From positions 6,391 through 70,390 of the forward strand of contig JAWODY010000074.1 in assembly GCA_046483045.1 (NCBI GenBank): DNA of 64,000 nt, given 5' to 3'. The position numbers and the translations under genes were made by a program. Origin of the DNA: Anaerolineales bacterium (GTDB taxonomy: Bacteria; Chloroflexota; Anaerolineae; Anaerolineales; UBA11858). The notes under the pieces were generated by a model. It had not been told where the DNA came from. It did no database searches and saw nothing but the letters and a program-made list of their open reading frames with translations. Positions 37,320 to 45,978 of the stretch are shown piece after piece. How positions within the stretch are numbered: the first letter of the stretch is position 1; each line of letters begins with the position of its first letter.

Positions 37320-38018
37320 TCAACTCATCAATTCCAAGCGGAGTTTATTCATCATGGATTCTAGCTTTTCCAACCTGATCCGGTGCCAGAGCACATCCGA
37401 AAAGAGAACAGAAAACGTGAATAAACTGAAGAAAAATGTTATTTTCATAGACTCTGTCATGCTGAACCCTCCCCCCGCAGTCGGGTCACCAGCGCCGATC
37501 ACCACAGGGTGAATGGTGCGCAGCATCCGGATGGAAACAAATGTCAACGGCACACTGACAAAACAAAAGATCGCATATACCGCAGAGAATCGAGCCTTTT
37601 GTCGTGGTTCGTCAATAGCCTGACGCAGTAAAAAATAAGCCCCATAGATCAGCTCCACCACAGCTGCTGTGGTTAACCTGGGATCCCACGTCCACCACGT
37701 ATTCCAAATCGGCCTGGCCCAAATGGAGCCAGAAATAATGGCAATGAAAAAGAAAATAAAACTTATTTCAACACTAGAAAAACCAATCATGTCCCATATT
37801 TTTTCCCTGCTGAGAATATACATGACGCCCATGAGGGCTGAAACAAAGAACCCCAACATCCCCACCCATGCAGTAGAGACATGAAAATAAAACACTTTTT
37901 GGACAGCACCCATACTACGTTCCAACGGAGCATAGAAAAATACCAACAAAACAGCCGCCAAAAAACAAATAACGGTAATCCCATCCAACAGGGAAAGGAA
38001 ACGGGGTTTTTCTTCCAT
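37320..38018 (-). CDS. ccmC: Heme exporter protein C
   Basis: 232 aa polytopic protein with the Trp-rich motif 'WARPIWNTWWTWDPRLTT' and conserved His contexts. Confidence 0.9.
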   Translation of the reverse strand: MEEKPRFLSLLDGITVICFLAAVLLVFFYAPLERSMGAVQKVFYFHVSTAWVGMLGFFVSALMGVMYILSREKIWDMIGFSSVEISFIFFFIAIISGSIWARPIWNTWWTWDPRLTTAAVVELIYGAYFLLRQAIDEPRQKARFSAVYAIFCFVSVPLTFVSIRMLRTIHPVVIGAGDPTAGGGFSMTESMKITFFFSLFTFSVLFSDVLWHRIRLEKLESMMNKLRLELMS

Positions 38019-38699
38019 TTACGACCACTCCTCTACCACATATTCAAACAACATAACAGCGACTGCAGTAAATATCAGATCATAGACAATAATGACATTC
38101 AGCCAGGTCATGATCCATGGCCCTGGATATCCTTCTAAATAACCGATGCTCGCTTTCACCGCGGGGATCAGGATCGGGATCGTGAGAGGAAAAAGCAGGA
38201 TCGGAAGTAAGATATCGTGCGTTCGGGCCTGAACACTCATGGCAGCCAGAAGGGTCCCTACCGCAATATAGCCTATCGAACCCAATAACACCACCAGCAG
38301 GAAACCGGGGACTAACATGTTGACATTGAAAAGGACGCTGTAGATTGGGAGGACTATCACCTCAACTACCAGCAAAAATATTAAATTACCAAGCGCTTTC
38401 CCGACGTATAACGCGCTGCGATCTACAGGTGCCAATAATAAACCATCCAAGCATCCCCCCTCCCTTTCAGAAGCCATGGATCTATTTACACCCAATGTGC
38501 CGGCAAACGTAAATGTCACCCATAAAACCCCCGCTGTGACGGATTCTTGAGCCTGGACATCCAAATCCAGAGCAAAGTTAAATATGAGTATTACCAATAA
38601 AGAAAAAACCAGCATAGACGTAAGAATTTCCTTGTTCCGGGCCTCCCCAACCATATCCTTCCAAACCACCGTTATCACGGTCCTGAGGTAATTTCTCAC
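38019..38699 (-). CDS. ccmB: Heme exporter protein B
   Basis: 226 aa, six predicted TM helices, CcmB-like 'KD...E.R.KE' N-terminus. It abuts ccmC and overlaps ccmA by 4 nt. Confidence 0.85.
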   Translation of the reverse strand: MRNYLRTVITVVWKDMVGEARNKEILTSMLVFSLLVILIFNFALDLDVQAQESVTAGVLWVTFTFAGTLGVNRSMASEREGGCLDGLLLAPVDRSALYVGKALGNLIFLLVVEVIVLPIYSVLFNVNMLVPGFLLVVLLGSIGYIAVGTLLAAMSVQARTHDILLPILLFPLTIPILIPAVKASIGYLEGYPGPWIMTWLNVIIVYDLIFTAVAVMLFEYVVEEWS

Positions 38700-39412
38700 A
38701 ACCGCTCTCCCCCTCTCCTCCGGACAGCCTCCCGGTAAAACATCAGTAGTCGATCCATGTCTATTTTCTCTTCCTTTACAGAAGCCACGATCTTACCTCG
38801 AGAGAGGACATCAAACCGCGATGCCAGATTGGCAACCTGGGCTAAATCGTGAGAGGTGACAAGAACAATCCGGCCTTGTTCACTCATATGCAGAAGGACA
38901 TCGTTCAACATTCGCACGGAATCCTGGTCCAAGCCTGTGTGTGGTTCATCAAAAAGTAAAATTTGGGGTTCATGTAAGAGGGATCTACCCAGGGCTAAAC
39001 GCTGAACCATGCCCCGCGAAAATGTCCGCACTAGATCAGCGCCTCGGCGTTGCAAACCTACCATGTCCAAAACCTGTGTAGCCCTTTGTCGATAATCAGA
39101 CACGTTGTAAAGGCGGCCATAAAACCAGAGATTTTCCTCCGCTGTGAGATCGCCGTACAGCAGGGGTTGATGGGAGACAAACCCTAATCGTTCTCTAACC
39201 CAATCAGCCTCTTGGGGCAACTGAAAACCCGCGACACTCACCTCCCCCCCATCTGGACGGAAAAGCGACGACAGGATACGGAGGAAGGTTGTTTTACCAG
39301 ATCCATTTGGCCCCAAAAGGGCTACAAGTTCACCCTTCTCCACTTGAAAATCCAACCCGTTCAGGACACGTTTATGACCAAAACGCTTCCGGAGATTCCG
39401 CACTTCAATCAT
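38696..39412 (-). CDS. ccmA: Heme exporter ATP-binding protein A
   Basis: Walker A 'GPNGSGKTT', signature 'FSRGMVQRLALGR' and Walker B 'LLFDEP'. Supported by its position next to ccmB and ccmC. Confidence 0.85.
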   Translation of the reverse strand: MIEVRNLRKRFGHKRVLNGLDFQVEKGELVALLGPNGSGKTTFLRILSSLFRPDGGEVSVAGFQLPQEADWVRERLGFVSHQPLLYGDLTAEENLWFYGRLYNVSDYRQRATQVLDMVGLQRRGADLVRTFSRGMVQRLALGRSLLHEPQILLFDEPHTGLDQDSVRMLNDVLLHMSEQGRIVLVTSHDLAQVANLASRFDVLSRGKIVASVKEEKIDMDRLLMFYREAVRRRGGERL

Positions 39413-40757
39413 CCTGCATTTCCTTCTCTACAGACTCTCTCAGCCTGGCTTTTAATGTCTCCCGGCGGGAACGATACACGTTCTCCTGGATCTCGCCTTC
39501 AGCGTATAAATTATCTAAAGCGATGATCGCATCCGTAAGCTCTGCTTTGTCTTTGGAAACCTGATTTAAATCTGGATCAGGACCCTCATTTTCCAGCCGC
39601 TGATGATAAAACCACATTCCAATCAACAACAAGGCCCCACTTAAGACGCTGAAACCAATCAAAAAACTTTTCTGATCCTCAACCAAAACCAATTCTTTTC
39701 CTGGATCTGACTGTCCAGGAAGACCGGAAAGGGCAAAACGTATTTGTTCTCCGCGACGTACGTTTTCCGCCAAATACACATGTATGCCCCCCCCCTGGAC
39801 TTCCCGGATACCCATGTCCTGTAAAAAGGTTCCCTGGACATCCACGCCCTGGGCAGGCGTCATGATCTCCACTGAGCCTACAGGTAAATTCGTTTTCTGT
39901 GTAAATTCAAGATGGTTGTCCTTATATGGGATATCAAAAAACACGGTGGTTTGATACACACCGGACCCTGGAGGGACACTCATCGTATCACCAAAACCAT
40001 TCTCCGTGAACACATAACGTTCCCCCAAGGAACCCGACTCGAACTTTATATTCTGCGCTCCTTCCGGCAAAGGAAAGTCAAGGACAGGCTCTCCTTTTTT
40101 CTCAGAAACAACCGTTTTAGGGCCAAAATTTGAAACGATAAACATTTCCCCAAACTTAACTAGAGCTTGATCGGAAAAGTTCACAAAGATATGCAAACTT
40201 TCCACGGATAATGACCCCTGATCTGTGGTCGTTCCATAAACCTGTATTTGAAGGTCAAGCGTTTTGTTGTCTGATTTTAGTTGGACAACATCCGAACGAT
40301 ACGTCGCTCCTTGATACACAAGGGAGGCGAAATAATGTAACCCCGGTTTCAAAGGCACCGAAGGGAACGTGATCTTACCATCCTCTTTTAGCGGGAGAGA
40401 TTGAACATAGACCTGAGTCATATGGTCATAACCCTCTAATTTCACCCGCAGGTCTGGCGCCAGGTTTTCGTCTTCCCGTTGATCAACAACGGTAACCATC
40501 ACGTTTCCGAGCCACTCCTCTCGGGTCGGTTCGGGTGTGGATTCGGATAGTGGAATTGGCCTCTGGTTTGGAATCAGTGATCCTCTCTGTCCCTCCAGGT
40601 GACGAGAGGGGAATTCCACTAAAACTTTCCCTAAAGGAGACCTGGTATATTTTAAGAATGGTGTGGTCGTTGGGTAAGAGGAAAGCCCACCCCACATACC
40701 CATGTAGAGGGCATGTAATGAAATCAAGACGAACCACCCAGCCTTTGCCACATTCAT
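39405..40757 (-). CDS. Hypothetical bitopic membrane protein inside the ccm operon (large beta-rich ectodomain, cytoplasmic CcmI-like helix)
   Basis: The ATG at 40757 overlaps the upstream stop (ATGA). It has an N-terminal TM, a Thr/Val-rich domain of about 330 aa, a second TM 'FLIGFSVLSGALLLIGMWFY', then 'DKAELTDAIIALDNLYAEGEIQENVYRSRRETLKARL'. Confidence 0.6.
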   Translation of the reverse strand: MNVAKAGWFVLISLHALYMGMWGGLSSYPTTTPFLKYTRSPLGKVLVEFPSRHLEGQRGSLIPNQRPIPLSESTPEPTREEWLGNVMVTVVDQREDENLAPDLRVKLEGYDHMTQVYVQSLPLKEDGKITFPSVPLKPGLHYFASLVYQGATYRSDVVQLKSDNKTLDLQIQVYGTTTDQGSLSVESLHIFVNFSDQALVKFGEMFIVSNFGPKTVVSEKKGEPVLDFPLPEGAQNIKFESGSLGERYVFTENGFGDTMSVPPGSGVYQTTVFFDIPYKDNHLEFTQKTNLPVGSVEIMTPAQGVDVQGTFLQDMGIREVQGGGIHVYLAENVRRGEQIRFALSGLPGQSDPGKELVLVEDQKSFLIGFSVLSGALLLIGMWFYHQRLENEGPDPDLNQVSKDKAELTDAIIALDNLYAEGEIQENVYRSRRETLKARLRESVEKEMQDD

Positions 40758-41236
40758 GACGCCAATCTTTCTCCACACTGGACACAGTATTGATCAGAAG
40801 TTCCCACAACATGGCCGCAGTGAGGGCAAAATTTGTATTTCTTGCTGCCTAATTTGCGGCGCCGGGAAGCGATCAAGGTTTCAATCTCATCGACCTCCGT
40901 TCTGGGAGGGGATTTTTTGATCGCCTCACCAGATAGGGGTTTCCTTTCAATCTGCTGCTTTTCTTTTAACTCATCGATTTTTTTAACGATTAGGGCTGCT
41001 TTTTTTACCAAGGTTTGGCGGGCTCTTTGATAATCTTTGGGGGCAATTTTTTCCAGCTCGTAATCAAAATCTAACTCCTCAATACGTTTGTACATCCGCT
41101 CCCGTTCAGCCTGAAGCCTGGATAACTCACACTCCTCCTCTGACACATACGTCTCCTGATCAAAAAAGGGTTGGCTGACAAATACAGCTACCAACAACAT
41201 AATGCTGAGGAGGACTAAAATTGAACCGACATCCAT
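40754..41236 (-). CDS. Hypothetical membrane protein with CcmI-N-like helix and C-terminal zinc ribbon
   Basis: GAGGTG lies 8 nt before ATG 41236. The order is TM 'ILVLLSIMLLVAVFV', then 'RMYKRIEELDFDYELEKIAPKDYQRARQTLVKKA', then 'CPHCGHVVGTSDQYCVQCG'. Confidence 0.6.
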   Translation of the reverse strand: MDVGSILVLLSIMLLVAVFVSQPFFDQETYVSEEECELSRLQAERERMYKRIEELDFDYELEKIAPKDYQRARQTLVKKAALIVKKIDELKEKQQIERKPLSGEAIKKSPPRTEVDEIETLIASRRRKLGSKKYKFCPHCGHVVGTSDQYCVQCGERLAS

Positions 41237-41260
41237 TTCAAAGCACCTCAAATTCTGATC

Positions 41261-41776
41261 TCATTTTTTTTCCAGAAGAGGATCAAGAGTGGATTTGATA
41301 TCTTCCAGGGAACGAAACGGCCCGATCTGCCTGTGGTAGATTTCACCGTTCCGGTCGATGATGTAGGTTTCCGGGACGCCGCGAATGCGAAAGGCCTGAG
41401 AAATATCTGTGCGCCTGTCCGGGCCGTTTGGATATGTGATTTCAAATTGTTCAATGTACTCTCTTGCTGCAGGCTCAGTATCCACATAATCCACACCCAA
41501 GAAGATTACATCTTCTCGAGATCGATAATCCCGCCAAGCCTGCTCTAAATCCTTGGCTTCGGGCTTACATGATTCGCACCAGGAAGACCAGAAATTTACA
41601 ACTACCACCTTCCCTCCCAGCTCCTGCAAATGAAACGTTTCCCCAGAGAATGTTGTCAATTTGAAATCAGGCGCTTTCTCACCTACCCCGATCTGACCTT
41701 GCTGTGTCCTTATCAAACCAAGTGCAAGGATCGTCAAGAGCAGCACCAATCCTCCCCAAAGCAACCACTTTTTCAT
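41261..41776 (-). CDS. ccmG: Thiol:disulfide interchange protein (CcmG/DsbE/ResA-type thioredoxin)
   Basis: N-terminal membrane anchor and 'VVVVNFWSSWCESCKPE' CxxC thioredoxin fold, in ccm context. Confidence 0.85.
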   Translation of the reverse strand: MKKWLLWGGLVLLLTILALGLIRTQQGQIGVGEKAPDFKLTTFSGETFHLQELGGKVVVVNFWSSWCESCKPEAKDLEQAWRDYRSREDVIFLGVDYVDTEPAAREYIEQFEITYPNGPDRRTDISQAFRIRGVPETYIIDRNGEIYHRQIGPFRSLEDIKSTLDPLLEKK

Positions 41777-41795: not shown

Positions 41796-42296
41796 TCACC
41801 TATTTTCTAATTCCTTCTCCACGCGAGAGATATATTCTTCCTCAATCCCTACCTCATCTTCCTGGACTTCCCTGGAATCAGGACGAGAGGACCTTCCGCT
41901 GATCTGCCATTTAGTAAATCCGCGATAAAGGGCATAGGCTCCTGCTAAGAATGCCAGTGGTGGGACGAGATAAACTAACCAGTTGAACCCTCGCTTTGGG
42001 GGCTCAGCCAAAACACGATCGCCGTATTCCTCGACAAAATACCCCTTGATTTCTTCCTCCGTCCAACCCTGCTGAAGCTTGTCACGGATCAACCCCCGCC
42101 ACTGCTCGCAGGCAGAAGTTCGACAGGCATCCAGCGGCGTGTTTTCACAAACCGGGCAGTAAAGCTGTTTGGCAATCACATTTACCTCATCATCAGGAGG
42201 AGTTGGCTCTTGAGCGAAAGCAGGGCTTGGGTACAACATGACCAAAACAAGCAAAACCAGGAAAACCCAGGCCCCAAGATGAATATGTATCTTCAT
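41796..42296 (-). CDS. ccmH: Cytochrome c-type biogenesis protein CcmH/NrfF family
   Basis: Signal peptide, 'QLYCPVCENTPLDAC', 'EEIKGYFVEEYGDRVLAEPP' and a C-terminal TM. It is collinear with the E. coli CcmH N-domain. Confidence 0.85.
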   Translation of the reverse strand: MKIHIHLGAWVFLVLLVLVMLYPSPAFAQEPTPPDDEVNVIAKQLYCPVCENTPLDACRTSACEQWRGLIRDKLQQGWTEEEIKGYFVEEYGDRVLAEPPKRGFNWLVYLVPPLAFLAGAYALYRGFTKWQISGRSSRPDSREVQEDEVGIEEEYISRVEKELENR

Positions 42297-44399: not shown

Positions 44400-44918
44400 T
44401 CATCCAGATTTTTCAGGAGAGACTTCTTCATATTTGGTGGGGCATTTCAGGAGAACTTCATCCGCGTAGAATACACCATCTAAAGTCATCTTTCCTGTGA
44501 TGATGGCCTGGGCTTCATGCACCAATAAATCCGGTTTAGGACCCTCATACATGACATCCAATGTCTCCCGATCAGGGTCATTCACAGCTTGATGCAAGGC
44601 AGCGGCTACACCGCCCTCAGCATTGAGGGCTACCTTTTTCCCCGGAACATGAGCAATCGTGAAGGTCAAGTTTAAATTTTCCATATCATATGCGATGCTT
44701 TCGCCAATCACTGCCCCGGATACACGCACGTTCCGATCATTTAATTCCCCCTGCTCATATTTCAAGTTTGTTTCCTCTACGGTGAGATAATACTGCGTGT
44801 TGGCTTTCGCGGAGGAAGCAATCAAATAAATCACCGCTGTCACAATCAGGATCCCCCCCACGATGAACTTAATCCGACCCCGATTTTTCATTTCCTTCAC
44901 AGCCATTTCTTCACCCAT
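44400..44918 (-). CDS. ccmE: Heme chaperone CcmE, CxxxY variant
   Basis: Membrane anchor plus OB-fold 'VRVSGAV...F.I......L.V.Y.G..PDL'. The C-terminal 'EVLLKCPTKYEE' aligns with E. coli 'EVLAKHDENYTP'. Cys (codon 44442-44444) replaces the heme-binding His. Confidence 0.85.
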   Translation of the reverse strand: MGEEMAVKEMKNRGRIKFIVGGILIVTAVIYLIASSAKANTQYYLTVEETNLKYEQGELNDRNVRVSGAVIGESIAYDMENLNLTFTIAHVPGKKVALNAEGGVAAALHQAVNDPDRETLDVMYEGPKPDLLVHEAQAIITGKMTLDGVFYADEVLLKCPTKYEEVSPEKSG

Positions 44919-45087: not shown

Positions 45088-45978
45088 CTAGAGTTTATGC
45101 CCACAGACTCTACAATAACGATCGTTTTCTGCTGTTTTGCTTCCACACTGCGGACAAGAGGAACTCAACTCAGAGAAAACTGGCTCATGTGGTTTCGGTT
45201 TGCTTTCCAGACTTTCAGGAGGATTTCGTTTTTCACCAAACCACCAATAAATTCCAACTGCACCCAGTATGAACAGAAAGCCTAAACTACCCAGCAGCCA
45301 GGGGAGAAGATTCCAGCCCTGGAAAGAAAAAGATAGTTGGGGTTCAATGGGTTTACGGGGTTGGACTGATTGTCCCCCCATACTCAATGAATCAGAGGAT
45401 TTATGATATTTAATCTGGATATTCTGGCTTTCAGTTTCCTTCAATTGGGCTTCGCTCATCCTGAAATATTTTAAGCCGTCACTTCCCTGATAAGATTCCC
45501 CAAAAGGTGGTGATATATCCAGGTCATAAGCACCCCGAGGTTCTTGAACCTGGAACACAACCGAATTCACAGAGTGATTGCCCGGCCATGTATAAGTAAA
45601 TGTGCGCAGATTTCCCTCTTTTTTTAGAAGAGGGTCATAGTATTCAAATTGAACTTCATGAAACGTAGCGATAAAAGAGATCTCAGCGAATTCCCCCTTT
45701 AACACACGTTCATATTTAACAGACATTAACTTGTTATCAGGATCGCGAACAGCTACAGCATTGGGTTGGCCTGCTTCAGCAGGAATTTGAAATGTAACCA
45801 AAGCAGGCAGGGACACCTGGGATGACAAGACTCCCCGATAAATGATCAGGACACGAGGATCGTCGTACTCTGGCCAAATGTCAACCACCAGTTCATCAAA
45901 GGTTACCCCTTCCTGACCCTGTACCGGAAGGGGGAAGAGCATCAGAAACAGCACAATGACCAAAACCGCTTTTTTCAA
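45088..45978 (-). CDS. Hypothetical exported/bitopic protein with cytoplasmic zinc ribbon, first gene of the ccm cluster
   Basis: Signal peptide 'MKKAVLVIVLFLMLFPLPVQG', a beta-rich ectodomain of about 200 aa, TM 'LLPWLLGSLGFLFILGAVGIYWWF', and the C-terminal 'CPQCGSKTAENDRYCRVCG'. Confidence 0.6.
   Translation of the reverse strand: MKKAVLVIVLFLMLFPLPVQGQEGVTFDELVVDIWPEYDDPRVLIIYRGVLSSQVSLPALVTFQIPAEAGQPNAVAVRDPDNKLMSVKYERVLKGEFAEISFIATFHEVQFEYYDPLLKKEGNLRTFTYTWPGNHSVNSVVFQVQEPRGAYDLDISPPFGESYQGSDGLKYFRMSEAQLKETESQNIQIKYHKSSDSLSMGGQSVQPRKPIEPQLSFSFQGWNLLPWLLGSLGFLFILGAVGIYWWFGEKRNPPESLESKPKPHEPVFSELSSSCPQCGSKTAENDRYCRVCGHKL

Follow-up and report, generated by a model that had tools for sequence, protein, structure and literature searches.

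Cysteine-type CcmE encoded together with CcmH in a System I (Ccm) operon of Anaerolineales

Does a CcmE protein that has cysteine where the histidine that binds heme would stand, and is encoded in the same operon as CcmH, represent a mixture of two cytochrome c maturation systems? The question is raised by a ccm operon in the window, i.e. the whole 64,000-nt stretch of Anaerolineales DNA analysed here, which the first-pass annotation had described as a hybrid of canonical System I and its CxxxY variant. That annotation was right in that the original description of the variant system had no CcmH in it (Allen et al., 2006, cited through PMC3601427 and PMC9084895). Neither CcmH nor CcmG is needed for the Desulfovibrio operon to function (Goddard et al., 2010, summarised in PMC3601427). 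We examined the identity of the genes, the presence of alternative maturation proteins in the source genome, the distribution of the pairing across the Chloroflexota and the cysteine content of CcmH.

The cysteine of CcmE and its genomic setting

The protein encoded by the ccmE candidate belongs to the Pfam family CcmE (PF03100; 6.8e-20, 71.7 bits, cut-off 24.6) and ends with EVLLKCPTKYEE (as a longer stretch of the translated ORF, ...FYADEVLLKCPTKYEEVSPEKSG). Alignment with phmmer against the PDB pairs 'adEVLlKCptkYee' with 'akEVLaKHdenYtp' of E. coli CcmE (8ce8_E, 1sr3_A), and Cys159 and Tyr163 accordingly take the positions of His130 and Tyr134, respectively. The HxxxY signature of the canonical, E. 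coli-type System I is thus replaced by CxxxY. Formal HMMER alignment thereby bears out what had been read from the letters, namely, a cysteine at the heme-binding position followed four residues on by a tyrosine, and minus-strand translation reproduces the coordinates given for this motif exactly, with the Cys159 codon TGC at 44444-44442 and the Tyr163 codon TAT at 44432-44430.

The fold is consistent with this assignment. An AlphaFold2 model built with 20 homologues (mean pLDDT 79.8) predicts a membrane helix (residues 5-39), an OB barrel with strands up to residue 158 and a disordered tail, with Cys159 directly past the last strand of the barrel, where the tail begins. The best Foldseek matches of the model (8ce8_E, 1lm0, 1sr3, 1j6q and 2kct) all represent CcmE of E. 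coli, Shewanella or Desulfovibrio vulgaris. The domain carries an insertion (Table 1), evident from the Pfam match, which covers 124 residues for 97 model positions. Two short helices are predicted within it at residues 95-100 and 104-113 (pLDDT about 87-95), and its signature, GGxA..L..AV.DP.R, is conserved (alignment A1). Nucleotide matches of ~366 nt to ccmE were found solely in genomes of the same order, compared with ~290 nt elsewhere in the Chloroflexota. The two-helix insertion hence seems to be kept across the Anaerolineales and, within the phylum, restricted to them, a minor lineage feature that is possibly undescribed.

Table 1. Features of the ccm operon and its upstream neighbour; coordinates are those of the window
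Feature	Coordinates	Strand	Characteristics
upstream 296-aa protein	45088..45978	-	exported/TM protein, C-terminal zinc ribbon; Pfam Zn_Ribbon_1 1.2e-05
ccmE, 172 aa	44400..44918	-	N-terminal membrane anchor, OB-fold domain, flexible C-terminal tail with CPTKY motif
CcmE insertion, 25 residues (94-118)	44565..44639	-	KKVALNAEGGVAAALHQAVNDPDRE; in OB fold; two short helices predicted
CPTKY motif of CcmE	44430..44444	-	Cys159, position of heme-binding His130; Tyr163, position of axial-ligand Tyr134
ccmF, 682 aa	42293..44341	-	heme lyase subunit; WWD motif WGGYWGWDPVE; Pfam CcmF_C 2.8e-53, Cytochrom_C_asm 1.5e-38
ccmH, 166 aa	41796..42296	-	signal peptide, CcmH domain with LYCPVC, C-terminal TM helix
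CcmH cysteine motif, residues 47-63	42108..42158	-	CPVCENTPLDACRTSAC; CxxC (C47, C50) and second pair (C58, C63)
ccmG/ResA-like	41261..41776	-	membrane-anchored thioredoxin; WCESC, GVPET; Pfam AhpC-TSA and Redoxin matches
unnamed 165-aa protein	40754..41251	-	N-terminal TM helix, charged helical region, C-terminal zinc ribbon; Pfam Zn_Ribbon_1 5.9e-06
unnamed 457-aa protein	39405..40778	-	bitopic membrane protein; conserved operon member
ccmA	38696..39412	-	ABC ATPase; TIGR01189 ccmA 143.1 bits, cut-off 131.6
ccmB	38019..38699	-	Pfam CcmB 4.8e-30
ccmC	37320..38018	-	Pfam Cytochrom_C_asm 3e-27, TIGR01191 ccmC 2.3e-30
ccmD candidate, 52 aa	37143..37301	-	single TM helix, then basic stretch

The ccmE gene opens an operon of the order ccmE-F-H-G-(two unnamed genes)-A-B-C-D, in which D is a candidate. 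The ccmF product matches CcmF of Thermus thermophilus (6zmq_A) at 3.5e-96, and ccmF overlaps by 4 nt with ccmH, the product of which is a member of the Pfam family CcmH (PF03918; 1.5e-22, 79.9 bits, cut-off 25), with LYCPVC aligned to LRCPKC of the CcmH structures 2hl7_A and 2kw0_A. The next gene encodes a CcmG-like thioredoxin, which matches the NCBIfam models ResA (3.7e-28) and DsbE (2.8e-17), in both cases under the curated cut-offs. The claim that a CcmH/NrfF-type gene and ccmG share the operon of ccmE is thus upheld by the Pfam and PDB alignments and by the nature of the thioredoxin.

Between ccmG and ccmA, the two unnamed genes form a regular part of the operon. A gene for the 165-aa zinc-ribbon protein occupies this place in 70 of 80 Anaerolineales loci, and most other ccm loci of the Chloroflexota have it as well. 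The 457-aa bitopic protein, for which Pfam and NCBIfam searches matched no family, is present in 66 of the 80 loci and also occurs in Chloroflexota of other classes. Given that a TPR-type CcmI is absent, these two membrane proteins may stand in for it. The operons outside the order that share them include two with a histidine-type CcmE (L112 and L114). The candidate CcmD, which gave no match to PF04995 in Pfam even at E <= 10, is proposed on the basis of its size and predicted topology, its location after ccmC and its conservation among relatives: a homologous small ORF lies directly 3' of ccmC in the related loci listed, with the consensus YMIAGYAVIFG..Y..SL..R.RNL..DLE. The zinc-ribbon protein encoded upstream of ccmE is tied to the operon loosely, a homologue having been detected in only 23 of the 80 related loci. 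A scan of the operon for promoters and terminators returned sites about as often as expected by chance, or less often.

Distribution of cysteine-type CcmE and of its pairing with CcmH

Homologues of CcmE number more than 6,600. Each of the best 120 carries C-P-[TS]-x-Y, in 116 of them as CPTKY, and the cysteine therefore is neither a chance substitution nor a sequencing error. An alternative explanation is that the cysteine arose in assembly or sequencing, or that the true chaperone is a histidine-type CcmE whose gene lies outside the assembled contigs. The source genome is a metagenome-assembled genome (MAG) of 94 contigs that is 91% complete, so that a gene could be missing from the assembly. 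Nevertheless, this explanation is effectively refuted: the motif recurs in relatives, including one that is 92% identical and has CPSKY, a genome-wide search at E <= 1 recovered a single CcmE and no second one of either type, and closed or complete relatives yielded no histidine-type ccmE. Among the closed or near-complete relatives, Thermanaerothrix daxensis and T. solaris carry a single ccmE each, of the cysteine type, as do two chromosome-level MAGs and two single-contig genomes. The possibility of a second, HxxxY-type ccmE doing the work, which the first-pass annotation had itself raised, thus finds no counterpart in the 91%-complete genome or in its closed relatives.

Alternative maturation systems were sought in the same genome. 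The only members of PF01578 (the CcsA/CcmC/CcmF family) are CcmC and CcmF, with no CcsA-type protein beyond these two, and System II was therefore rejected. CcmH and CcdA are encoded once each. A dedicated NrfE/NrfF pair for CXXCK heme sites was likewise rejected, because CcmF and CcmH are the sole copies in the genome; CXXCK does not occur in either of the ORFs with at least two CXXCH motifs, to which this screen was confined.

The candidate c-type cytochromes of this genome form a small set that includes a tetraheme and a diheme ORF, which are candidate clients of the operon. These two, an exported tetraheme protein (C54:28523-30331, minus strand) and a membrane-anchored diheme protein (C42:35298-36461, minus strand), are alone in the genome in having more than one CXXCH motif, and the full 10-gene ccm operon therefore appears to serve a small client set.

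The pairing of cysteine-type CcmE with CcmH is already known. According to Stevens et al. (2011; FEBS J 278:4170, PMC3601427), cysteine-type CcmE occurs in chloroflexi, about one third of the bacteria with such a protein have CcmH, and the commonest motif is CPSKY; reviews have thus covered the combination from 2011 on. The present operon shows exactly this combination, with CPTKY as the motif. The review describes no Chloroflexi operon, and it makes no mention of a second cysteine pair in CcmH, of the insertion in CcmE or of accessory genes.

A species-level scan, with one genome per species, located CcmE of the LLKCPTKY type or a close relative in at least 582 species genomes. The 80 genomes retrieved all belong to the Anaerolineales/Chloroflexota (one record is mislabelled as Nitrosomonadaceae) and include the cultured Thermanaerothrix. 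The 80 fetched loci share the gene order ccmE-F-H-G-ZnR-X-A-B-C, and in 75 of them CcmH comes after CcmF. Of the remaining five, four (L017, L063, L081 and L082) are cut contigs that end before that position, and the fifth, L051, is an unexplained miss, with ~1.7 kb downstream of ccmE but no match to ccmF or ccmH.

In the phylum at large, CcmE was found in 283 of 401 sampled genomes, and 40 CcmE loci from about 35 families were read in detail. This sample comprises 31 cysteine-type and nine histidine-type loci. CcmH is encoded in all nine histidine-type loci and beside CcmF in 19 of the 31 cysteine-type loci. Genome-wide searches of eleven cysteine-type genomes without ccmH at the ccmE locus found CcmH elsewhere in six of them, and recovered none in four well-completed small genomes and one incomplete genome. 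In the CcmE tree, the cysteine type is spread over the whole phylum, and the histidine type is a nested minority. The mapping of HxxxY versus CxxxY across the Chloroflexota, which the first-pass annotation had suggested, thus shows the cysteine type to be widespread rather than exceptional.

Taken together, the locus census, the genome searches and the CcmE tree indicate that the pairing is ordinary in the Chloroflexota: cysteine-type CcmE with CcmH is the conserved default in the Anaerolineales and the majority state across the phylum. The notion of an unusual hybrid between canonical and variant systems is therefore unsupported, given both the earlier report of the pairing by Stevens et al. 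(2011) and its presence in 75 of 80 related loci and in most of the phylum sample. The combination is an inherited, conserved state of the order, neither a hybrid nor an anomaly. As originally formulated, the finding carries little weight, the pairing being what a very large bacterial order has by default.

The four well-completed genomes without CcmH (G177, G284, G065 and G008, with loci L095, L108, L115 and L118, respectively) measure 1.5-2.9 Mb, are 96-100% complete and encode cysteine-type CcmE and CcmF. They represent, in the same phylum, the CcmH-less System I* in its original sense. A closed genome of the order Anaerolineales (G258) contains two ccmE genes (L130 and L132/L134), both of the cysteine type, with the motifs RCPARY and KCPTRY. 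An apparent alanine-type CcmE in L113 ('KAPAVY') was rejected, this being an N-terminal stretch of a protein in which the real motif is QCPSRY.

A possible heme route through Cys159

Compared with System I*, as known from Desulfovibrio desulfuricans, D. vulgaris and archaea such as Methanosarcina acetivorans, the operon shares the CxxxY CcmE, with cysteine at the His130 position and tyrosine at +4, the OB fold of CcmE (Foldseek to 2KCT, TM 0.72, target-normalised), CcmABC, CcmF and a candidate CcmD. It differs in encoding CcmH and the CcmG-like thioredoxin, both of which are absent from the Desulfovibrio operon and from archaea, in having the two unnamed membrane proteins instead of a TPR-type CcmI and in the helical insertion of CcmE. 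Thus, of the features by which System I* was first defined (Allen 2006; Goddard 2010), CxxxY is present here, whereas the lack of CcmH (in Desulfovibrio also of CcmG) does not apply. With respect to canonical System I (E. coli CcmABCDEFGH, 8CE8, 1SR3 and 2KW0; Thermus CcmF, 6ZMQ), the core components are recognizable and syntenic, including the WWD motif of CcmF, the CxxC of CcmH, the WCxxC of CcmG, CcmABC and a CcmD-like small protein. Unlike in E. coli, a cysteine substitutes for His130, CcmH has four cysteines and no fused CcmI/TPR domain, and the genes follow the order E-F-H-G...A-B-C-D rather than A-H.

We consider it very probable that the locus is a functional and complete System I operon of the cysteine-CcmE type in which heme is routed through Cys159 of CcmE. 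By analogy with the characterized systems, CcmABCD would load heme onto CcmE, where Cys159 would act in place of His130, a thioether to a heme vinyl group being the most likely linkage, and Tyr163 would ligate the iron. Holo-CcmE would then hand the heme to CcmF. CcmH, with its CPVC motif, and the CcmG-like thioredoxin, fed by CcdA, would keep the CXXCH of the apocytochrome reduced and present it for ligation. Finally, CcmF and CcmH would move the heme to the apocytochrome, with CcmG and CcdA providing reductant.

We infer the heme chemistry of Cys159, and with it the part assigned to CcmH, because CcmE proteins with CxxxY have been reported to behave differently: that of D. vulgaris binds ferric heme via Cys127 without a covalent bond (reviewed in PMC3884852), whereas covalent heme-CcmE has been demonstrated for D. 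desulfuricans and M. acetivorans (PMC3601427, PMC9084895). Cys159 might accordingly serve as a non-covalent thiolate ligand only, in which case CcmE would be a conventional heme carrier and CcmF and CcmH would have no thioether to break. Such a carrier would also sidestep the difficulty that a thioether is hard to break through a reverse Michael reaction (Stevens et al., 2011, PMC3601427). Nonetheless, we regard this reading as unlikely: besides the covalent adduct of D. desulfuricans, the heme stain of M. acetivorans CcmE, attached at C120, disappears in the C120A mutant (Gupta et al., eLife 2022, PMC9084895), and the conserved tyrosine at +4 and the position identical to His130 suit a covalent scheme. 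The Anaerolineales operon has modest value as a natural system that is well conserved and has relatives in culture (Thermanaerothrix, Anaerolinea), suited to asking what CcmH adds when a cysteine rather than a histidine delivers the heme, and whether the cysteine-heme link in System I* is covalent and how it is resolved.

Extra cysteines in CcmH

Only the accessory genes that the operon conserves and a second, invariant pair of cysteines in CcmH may be undescribed. The two additional cysteines, C58 and C63, stand where canonical CcmH has serine and alanine. All four cysteines of CcmH are invariant in the related Anaerolineales, being present in 74-75 of the 75 sequences that cover each column, and the order-wide pattern reads C-P-V-C-E-x-x-P-L-D-x-C-x-x-x-x-C. 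Given this extra invariant pair, the protein may not share the chemistry of its E. coli counterpart.

One interpretation is that multi-cysteine CcmH and cysteine-type CcmE are co-adapted, such that C58/C63, or a metal site formed by the four cysteines, would be needed to deal with cysteine-linked heme, and the lineage would represent a mechanistically distinct subtype, as opposed to System I* with an ordinary CcmH added. The invariance of the four cysteines is in line with this idea, as is the distribution of non-canonical CcmH motifs (four-cysteine, CQCGC..CDC and CPSDC), which occur in eight of 19 cysteine-type operons versus none of nine histidine-type operons (Fisher p = 0.03, uncorrected for phylogeny); within the phylum sample, multi-cysteine forms were seen exclusively alongside cysteine-type CcmE. 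However, 11 cysteine-type operons from different Chloroflexota families encode an ordinary two-cysteine CcmH (CPVCQ..SVADSPS), and CcmH is missing altogether from four or five cysteine-type genomes. Cysteine-type CcmE thus does not require the extra pair for its function, the four-cysteine CcmH was rejected as a requirement of such a CcmE, and we find co-adaptation distinctly unlikely. A broader version, in which the insertion-bearing CcmE of the Anaerolineales, the four-cysteine CcmH and the two unnamed membrane proteins would form a co-evolved, mechanistically distinct subtype of System I, with the additional thiols or a metal site of CcmH aiding heme release, appears more doubtful still. 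The extra pair may instead form a structural disulfide that became fixed in a single lineage; it is a minor lineage feature, possibly undescribed, and the accessory genes, too, may be undescribed.

Variation in the cysteine content of CcmH extends beyond the order. The four-cysteine pattern also occurs in two other Chloroflexota families (L093 and L101). Beside cysteine-type CcmE, we observed a cysteine-rich form with MCQCGCT...CDC (L085, 6495-6956, minus strand; L086; L105) and a form with a single cysteine, CPSAAS (L084, 7015-7575, minus strand). A further form, CPSDC...C, is encoded in a genome that carries two ccm systems (G086; L123, 15537-16082, minus strand).
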